Assembly: GCF_003334355.1 (NCBI RefSeq)
Contig: NZ_QOWP01000047.1
Reading direction: 5' to 3' (one strand)
DNA length: 21,171 nucleotides
Origin: Escherichia coli
GTDB lineage: Bacteria > Pseudomonadota > Gammaproteobacteria > Enterobacterales > Enterobacteriaceae
This document shows positions 3,413-5,161 of the stretch, piece by piece. Positions within the stretch are counted from its first letter, which is position 1; each line of letters begins with the position of its first letter. The notes under the pieces were generated by a model. That model was not told the DNA's origin. It saw nothing but the letters and a program-made list of their open reading frames with translations, and did not search any database. The position numbers and the translations under genes were made by a program.

Positions 3413-3793
3413 TTACTGCGTGGTACCGTCGGTTTTGGTATCGACATCATTATTGATGCCATCACCGGTTTGTACCTTTTTATTGATATCCGGACAGCGA
3501 CCATCTTTGCACATGGTGTTCTTGTGCTCTTCATCTTTGGTCATTCCGTCATTGTTCATTGAAGAACCATCCGAATGCAGCATTGTGCCGCCAGAACCGG
3601 TATTTACCCCGTTATTGTCGACGTTATTTGGCGCGACATTTTCACGGGCGTCAGGGGCTACCTGGCCCGCATCAGCTGCGGCGTTTGCCTGGCCGTTATT
3701 AGTTTGCGCTCCGCTATCGGCAGCCAGTGCGGCACCGCTGGCAAGGCTTAGAGTGGCAGTCAGAAATAATGTGGCCAGTTTTGTCATTTTCAT
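3413..3793 (-). CDS. ybgS: Uncharacterised secreted Asn/Asp/Gly-rich protein YbgS
   Basis: 126 aa ORF with a good ribosome-binding site (AACAGGAGCATCCT-ATG) and a signal-peptide-like N terminus ([26 protein letters not shown]); the mature part is low-complexity, rich in N/D/G/T. Recognised as E. coli YbgS. Confidence 0.9.
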
Positions 3794-4020
3794 AGGATGC
3801 TCCTGTTATGGTCGTTATGTCGGATAACCTCTTCCAACAGTGCATTTGCAGGTGAATATAAGGCATTGGTTTAAGATTTCAGCCAGGTTATGAAACGCAG
3901 CAGAGAATCTTGAAATAATTAACAAACAAAGGAGTTACAGTTAGAAATTGTAGGAGAGATCTCGTTTTTCGCGACAATCTGGCGTTTTTCTTGCTAATTC
4001 CAGGATTAATCCGTTCATAG

Positions 4021-4038
4021 TGTAAAACCCCGTTTACA
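4021..4038. promoter_or_regulatory. TyrR box (TGTAAA-N6-TTTACA) in the aroG promoter
   Basis: TGTAAAACCCCGTTTACA is a perfect match to the TyrR box consensus, about 70 bp upstream of the aroG ATG; aroG is a known TyrR-regulon member. Confidence 0.8.
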
Positions 4039-4108
4039 CATTCTGACGGAAGATATAGATTGGAAGTATTGCATTCACTAAGATAAGTATGGCAACACTG
4101 GAACAGAC

Positions 4109-5161
4109 ATGAATTATCAGAACGACGATTTACGCATCAAAGAAATCAAAGAGTTACTTCCTCCTGTCGCATTGCTGGAAAAATTCCCCGCTACTGAAAA
4201 TGCCGCGAATACGGTTGCCCATGCCCGAAAAGCGATCCATAAGATCCTGAAAGGTAATGATGATCGCCTGTTGGTTGTGATTGGCCCATGCTCAATTCAT
4301 GATCCTGTCGCGGCAAAAGAGTATGCCACTCGCTTGCTGGCGCTGCGTGAAGAGCTGAAAGATGAGCTGGAAATCGTAATGCGCGTCTATTTTGAAAAGC
4401 CGCGTACCACGGTGGGCTGGAAAGGGCTGATTAACGATCCGCATATGGATAATAGCTTCCAGATCAACGACGGTCTGCGTATAGCCCGTAAATTGCTGCT
4501 TGATATTAACGACAGCGGTCTGCCAGCGGCAGGTGAGTTTCTCGATATGATCACCCCACAATATCTCGCTGACCTGATGAGCTGGGGCGCAATTGGCGCA
4601 CGTACCACCGAATCGCAGGTGCACCGCGAACTGGCATCAGGGCTTTCTTGTCCGGTCGGCTTCAAAAATGGCACCGACGGTACGATTAAAGTGGCTATCG
4701 ATGCCATTAATGCCGCCGGTGCGCCGCACTGCTTCCTGTCCGTAACGAAATGGGGGCATTCGGCGATTGTGAATACCAGCGGTAACGGCGATTGCCATAT
4801 CATTCTGCGCGGCGGTAAAGAGCCTAACTACAGCGCGAAGCACGTTGCTGAAGTGAAAGAAGGGCTGAACAAAGCAGGCCTGCCAGCACAGGTGATGATC
4901 GATTTCAGCCATGCTAACTCGTCCAAACAATTCAAAAAGCAGATGGATGTTTGTGCTGACGTTTGCCAGCAGATTGCCGGTGGCGAAAAGGCCATTATTG
5001 GCGTGATGGTGGAAAGCCATCTGGTGGAAGGCAATCAGAGCCTCGAGAGCGGGGAGCCGCTGGCCTACGGTAAGAGCATCACCGATGCCTGCATCGGCTG
5101 GGAAGATACCGATGCTCTGTTACGTCAACTGGCGAATGCAGTAAAAGCGCGTCGCGGGTAA
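4109..5161 (+). CDS. aroG: 3-deoxy-D-arabino-heptulosonate-7-phosphate synthase, Phe-sensitive
   Basis: 350 aa ORF recognised as E. coli AroG (MNYQNDDLRIKEIKELLPP...), full length. Confidence 0.96.
   Translation: MNYQNDDLRIKEIKELLPPVALLEKFPATENAANTVAHARKAIHKILKGNDDRLLVVIGPCSIHDPVAAKEYATRLLALREELKDELEIVMRVYFEKPRTTVGWKGLINDPHMDNSFQINDGLRIARKLLLDINDSGLPAAGEFLDMITPQYLADLMSWGAIGARTTESQVHRELASGLSCPVGFKNGTDGTIKVAIDAINAAGAPHCFLSVTKWGHSAIVNTSGNGDCHIILRGGKEPNYSAKHVAEVKEGLNKAGLPAQVMIDFSHANSSKQFKKQMDVCADVCQQIAGGEKAIIGVMVESHLVEGNQSLESGEPLAYGKSITDACIGWEDTDALLRQLANAVKARRG

Follow-up and report, generated by a model that had tools for sequence, protein, structure and literature searches.

TyrR recognizes the palindromic consensus TGTAAA-N6-TTTACA; boxes with at least 10 matches are classed as strong, and binding depends on a G and a C separated by 14 bp (PMC4374768). 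In Escherichia coli K-12, the aroG operator, aroGo (Baseggio, Davies and Davidson 1990, J Bacteriol 172:2547; TyrR regulon reviews), is described in PMC4374768, on the authority of the 1990 work, as a single perfect strong box lying over the -35 region, with repression by Phe and Trp. Secondary sources agree on Phe, which PMC4174253 names as a co-repressor for aroG, but they differ on the second effector: it is Trp in PMC4374768 and Tyr in PMC5791370, where the genomic SELEX targets of TyrR include aroG and Phe- and Tyr-mediated repression of this gene is mentioned. The strong box of E. coli tyrP resembles that of aroG in that it also lies over the -35 region and represses through TyrR occupancy (PMC4374768). 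However, tyrP carries an adjacent second box and combines Tyr-dependent repression by a TyrR hexamer with Phe-dependent activation, whereas aroG has one box. Cooperative binding of the hexamer, driven by Tyr and ATP, is used at promoters with several boxes (PMC4374768); at aroF and tyrP, the hexamer bridges strong and weak boxes. In Enterobacter cloacae UW5, the strong box of ipdC/akr follows the same TGTAAA-N6-TTTACA pattern and responds to the same regulator (PMC4374768); however, it lies some three helical turns ahead of the -35, where it serves as a class I activator site, whereas the aroG box represses. Finally, the homologous regulators (PhhR/TyrR) of Pseudomonas, Vibrio and Shewanella use similar palindromic boxes. 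Their regulons differ, as they comprise mainly catabolic genes and vary widely in content (PMC5343134, PMC1173090); aroG itself is predicted to belong to the TyrR regulon of the Vibrionales (PMC5343134).

Here we analysed a 21,171-base stretch of E. coli DNA, referred to as the window, in which a candidate TyrR box lies at positions 4021-4038. This box is the same object as aroGo, and no difference between the two was found. To our knowledge, the aroG box is the only perfect TyrR box described. We assign positions 4021-4038, with a probability of about 0.95, to the aroG operator: one strong TyrR box, with the -35 element of a sigma-70 promoter as its right half-site, that mediates repression by Phe and Trp. 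The analysis found no evidence that contradicts this assignment.

The TyrR box and the aroG promoter

The features on which the analysis rests are the following (positions are those of the window).

4021-4038, no strand assigned: strong TyrR box, arms TGTAAA and TTTACA around the spacer ACCCCG, 12 of 12 consensus positions matched, -47 to -30 relative to the aroG start
4033..4038, plus strand: aroG -35 hexamer TTTACA, found in a promoter scan; it is the right arm of the TyrR box and spans -35 to -30
4056..4061, plus strand: aroG -10 hexamer TAGATT, found in the same scan, after a 17-bp spacer; -12 to -7
4068, plus strand: aroG transcription start, an A, from Cappable-seq; +1
4068..4108, plus strand: aroG 5' untranslated leader, 41 nt
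4109..5161, plus strand: aroG coding sequence, the regulated gene, encoding a Phe-sensitive DAHP synthase of 350 amino acids

The identity of the regulated gene is well established: the protein scores 739.5 bits against the NCBIfam equivalog NF006723 (cut-off 568), and RefSeq names the gene on identical DNA aroG. The gene order is nadA, pnuC, zitB, ybgS, aroG, gpmA and galM, with zitB and ybgS on the minus strand. At its left end, the window opens inside a tRNA cluster (1-283), with a truncated tRNA at 1-72 and a tRNA-Lys(UUU) at 208-283; an Rfam RtT match at 7-174 (56.7 bits, gathering score 45) overlaps the tRNA at 1-72.

The sequence-only reading had described the aroG regulatory region as intact, and this description proved correct. 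Between 3776 and 4176 (401 bases), the window does not differ from positions 785,300-785,700 of MG1655 NC_000913.3; window positions are obtained by subtracting 781,524 from the NC_000913.3 coordinates, so that the aroG ATG at 4109 corresponds to 785,633. Of the 5426 complete E. coli genomes searched, every one contains a segment of 337 bases around the box, many of them at 100% identity, and 5369 contain the 30-mer at 4015-4044 that includes the box, which leaves 57 without the exact 30-mer. In the GTDB representative of E. coli (locus L002, ~1413-1430), the spacer reads ACGCCG versus ACCCCG in the window, and both arms are kept.

The letters at 4021-4038, TGTAAAACCCCGTTTACA, form the exact TGTAAA-N6-TTTACA palindrome that had been claimed there. 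All 12 arm positions agree with the consensus, where at least 10 of 12 define a strong box, and the essential pair, G4022 and C4037, is separated by 14 bases, as the definition of a strong box requires. When both strands of the window were searched, the exact pattern matched at this position only, and it did not occur in any of 100 dinucleotide-preserving shuffles of the window. Allowing up to three mismatches to the TyrR consensus gave seven matches where 8.65 were expected, and the other six all carry three mismatches. Since no other match in the window has fewer than three mismatches and the overall count stands at chance level, 4021-4038 is the sole credible box in the window. By the same token, a second, weak partner box with fewer than three mismatches was not found in the window, and the best other match over the 300 bp that precede the aroG box has four mismatches.

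The inverted repeat is perfect over one more base on each side (GTGTAAA at 4020-4026, TTTACAC at 4033-4039). With its perfect 7-nt arms and 6-nt loop, it might be thought to act as a nucleic-acid structure, such as a hairpin, a cruciform or a terminator, rather than as a protein-binding site. However, the predicted stem has little stability (-4.2 kcal/mol for DNA, z = -1.87), 8 of 200 shuffled sequences fold as well, and a search of the region for a terminator-like site returned none. Moreover, transcription starts downstream of the repeat, which is hence absent from the aroG mRNA, and the arms of the repeat are fixed among species, with neither co-variation nor compensatory changes, which points to sequence-specific recognition. 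A structural role thus has next to no probability, and we return to the box as a protein-binding site.

Seen from the coding sequence, the box had been placed some 70 bp ahead of the aroG start; the distance from the end of the box to the ATG at 4109 is exactly 70 nt, so that this figure holds for the start codon. The position that matters, however, is that of the box relative to the transcription start, -47 to -30. The promoter scan returned TTTACA, 17 bp and TAGATT as the sole sigma-70-like site that both adjoins aroG and faces it. Start-site data are available in U00096.2 coordinates, and the shift from U00096.2 to U00096.3 at the aroG locus, which we take to be +777, agrees with a sigma-54 ChIP-seq peak that it brings to within ~20 bp of a motif at 3979-3996 (see below). 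Cappable-seq detected a plus-strand start at U00096.2 position 784,815 with a score of 1902.5, far over its neighbours (PMC4782308, supplementary file 1). After the shift, this position corresponds to A4068, in exact agreement with the -10 hexamer, which also speaks for the shift; A4068 is located 7 nt past that hexamer, is the sole purine in 4067-4070 and is the sole strong plus-strand start in the spacer between ybgS and aroG. Promoter mapping could have put the box far from the start of aroG transcription; instead, these public single-base data fix its geometry, with the right arm of the box serving as the -35 hexamer.

Two weak plus-strand starts were also recorded in the ybgS-aroG spacer, at 3808 (U00096.2 position 784,555, score 5.6) and 3950 (784,697, score 1.6); neither fits a promoter-like site at 3890-3919. 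TTGGAA at 4060-4065 was considered as an alternative -35 for aroG and was rejected, as it failed the promoter scan and has no start site in its support.

Conservation of the box and of the promoter beneath it

The conservation of the box was surveyed in 80 species-level aroG loci from the Enterobacterales. Both arms are perfect, and at the same position in the promoter, in 54 of the 80 loci, where the distance from box to ATG is usually 70 nt (range 66-76, with one locus at 58). In these 54 loci, the -10 sequence TAGATT and the 17-bp spacing are unchanged throughout (54/54). When the distinct upstream sequences that bear the box were compared (55, the window included), the central six bases took 29 forms and the flanks drifted, and the ATTGC at the aroG start site was at least 90% conserved. 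The arms are under purifying selection and the spacer is free to vary, as is expected of a strong box. The sequence of the box, its uniqueness in the window, its position in the promoter and this pattern of conservation are all directly observed.

Because a survey anchored on the box selects for the box, the loci were also aligned on the promoter, using the pattern TTTACA-N16-18-TAnRTT. This pattern is present in 75 of the 80 loci, including loci without the left arm. Among these 75, the left arm is matched at six of six positions in 54 loci, at five of six in one (Chimaeribacter) and at four or fewer in 20. The 54 loci with a perfect left arm cover more than 20 genera of Enterobacteriaceae, plus Rahnella; the 20 loci that keep the promoter and miss the left arm belong to Serratia, Yersinia, Pantoea, Erwinia, Mixta, Hafnia and Proteus (L039, L046, L051-L053, L056, L059, L060, L063, L064, L066, L069, L071, L072, L074, L076, L077 and L079-L081). 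In the latter, TTTACA-N17-TAnATT lies ~70-100 nt before the aroG ATG, with a spacing of 16 bp in one Pantoea (L081), and many of them have nnnnAAAGnnGATTTACA in place of TGTAAA. Outside the Enterobacteriaceae and Rahnella, the full TyrR box is essentially absent, and the promoter is older.

These data bear directly on the view that the palindrome is only a promoter by-product, with TTTACA being just a good -35 and TGTAAA having arisen by chance, without a regulatory role. Indeed, the right arm is kept as a -35 in Serratia, Yersinia, Pantoea, Erwinia, Hafnia and Proteus in the absence of the left arm, so that the promoter alone explains part of the conservation of the box. However, it would leave unexplained why 54 loci from more than 20 genera have a perfect left arm while the spacer takes its 29 forms and the flanks drift. 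An exact match is also not expected by chance, as judged from the shuffled windows, and an operator function is assigned to the site in the literature, as reported in PMC4374768. Given the conservation pattern, and as far as sequence comparison can decide, the by-product view appears effectively refuted and keeps hardly any probability. Fixed arms, a free spacer and an all-or-none left arm argue instead for a protein-recognition site superimposed on an older promoter, in line with the assignment to the aroG operator.

The promoter pattern is missing from five loci, in Dickeya, Pectobacterium, Brenneria, one Serratia and one Yersinia. Four loci, those of Dickeya (L042), Pectobacterium (L068), Brenneria (L075) and Serratia marcescens (L067), have a different aroG upstream region with no TyrR box, and they share a block at ~1380-1500 of the form TTGAC(A/T)TAT(A/C)AT...CT(G/T)CAATATG. 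In Dickeya, the pnuC-zitB synteny is preserved despite this different upstream region. Dickeya alone also carries a Phe-rich upstream open reading frame of 29 codons (MNDDVFIFSFFTPGRQ...), the end of which overlaps the aroG ATG. We considered this frame as a conserved leader and rejected it, as the relatives aligned with Dickeya do not share it; a search of the promoter-less loci with Rfam for a Phe-type leader or attenuator gave no match.

A sigma-54 motif upstream of the box

A second sequence element that faces aroG lies ~25 bp upstream of the TyrR box.

3979-3996, plus strand: sigma-54 -24/-12 motif (GG-N10-GC), CTGGCGTTTTTCTTGCTA

Exactly this sequence, CTGGCGTTTTTCTTGCTA, appears among the low-stringency ChIP-seq sites of Bonocora et al. 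2015 (PMC4591121, S2), where it is assigned to aroG; the peak is given at 784,715, with a fold above threshold of 4, in the class 'outside a gene, sense orientation'. A genomic SELEX study of the RpoN holoenzyme also reports a peak in the ybgS/aroG spacer, and TyrR belongs to the sigma-54 activator family (PMC1173090), of which it is a degenerate representative. The neighbouring gene ybgS (3413-3793, minus strand) is listed in the sigma-54 RNA-seq table of the same ChIP-seq study (PMC4591121, S4), with a log2 change of ~-1.4 as tabulated.

The box might accordingly serve mainly another purpose, either the control of ybgS, which is transcribed divergently from a start codon at 3793, or work together with the sigma-54 site 25 bp upstream, which is bound both in the low-stringency ChIP-seq list and in genomic SELEX and which would suit a regulator of the enhancer-binding-protein family. 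Nothing speaks for the first of these options: 228 bp separate the box from the ybgS start codon, and ~140 bp from the sole promoter-like site that faces ybgS. As for the second, only the E. coli representative among the 80 species has the motif, which is thus missing from the 79 others, 53 of which have the TyrR box, and chance alone would yield 0.78 matches per window to the loose sigma-54 pattern. No Cappable-seq start was found near ~4006, where a sigma-54 transcript would be expected to begin, and the box would sit downstream of such a start, whereas sigma-54 activators normally bind upstream. The chance that the box is there mainly for such another role is therefore very slight.

A functional link between motif and box can also be imagined, in which a parked sigma-54 polymerase would modulate the access of TyrR or of the sigma-70 polymerase to the aroG promoter, or in which the pair would be a relic or an emerging aroG promoter of E. 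coli that depends on sigma-54 and TyrR; this link seems to us to have a slight chance. Despite the binding data, the sigma-54 motif is unlikely to be a working part of aroG control: it is not conserved, it has no start site and its geometry is unfavourable.

Proposed repression mechanism and origin of the operator

The sequence-only reading had named the box as the expected Phe/Trp-dependent TyrR repression site. This agrees with its 12 of 12 consensus matches and its place on the mapped aroG promoter, the effectors being those given in PMC4374768, as far as that source reports them. TyrR binding at the aroG box and its dependence on Phe and Trp are taken from the literature.

A repression mechanism may be proposed on this basis. 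A TyrR dimer on the box would cover -47 to -30 and would thereby occupy the -35 and the DNA just upstream, the docking place of sigma region 4 and of the alpha C-terminal domains. TyrR and RNA polymerase would thus compete for the promoter, and aroG would be transcribed less when Phe or Trp loads TyrR. The position of the box suggests such steric occlusion rather than for a block after polymerase binding, although repression acts after polymerase binding at some TyrR targets (PMC4374768) and may possibly do so at aroG. As no partner box was found within 300 bp, the hexamer driven by Tyr and ATP would have no second site to bridge at aroG. This would also fit with a repression that is ascribed for the most part to Phe and Trp, through the TyrR dimer; we infer that TyrR acts here in a dimer-only mode, with the modest repression of the dimer type.

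The aroG operator of the window is in its wild-type K-12 form, and it was already known. Having been mapped in the reference strain in 1990, it is a textbook case and carries little weight as a discovery. What the analysis does confirm is that the aroG control region of the window is that of an intact wild type. E. coli strains engineered for the overproduction of aromatic compounds routinely have the aroG operator removed or bypassed, by deletion of tyrR or by promoter swaps (PMC4174253).

The near-confinement of the box to the Enterobacteriaceae and Rahnella implies that the left arm was either gained there or lost elsewhere. An evolutionary scenario may thus be suggested: the operator may have been built in an ancestor of the Enterobacteriaceae by the addition of TGT to an existing AAA...TTTACA -35 region. 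This is a milder proposal than a link between the sigma-54 motif and TyrR, and a more likely one, and it is only modestly new. If true, it would indicate when aroG was recruited into the TyrR regulon. The distribution of the box thus bears on when aroG joined this regulon, a question that was posed and left open in PMC1173090.
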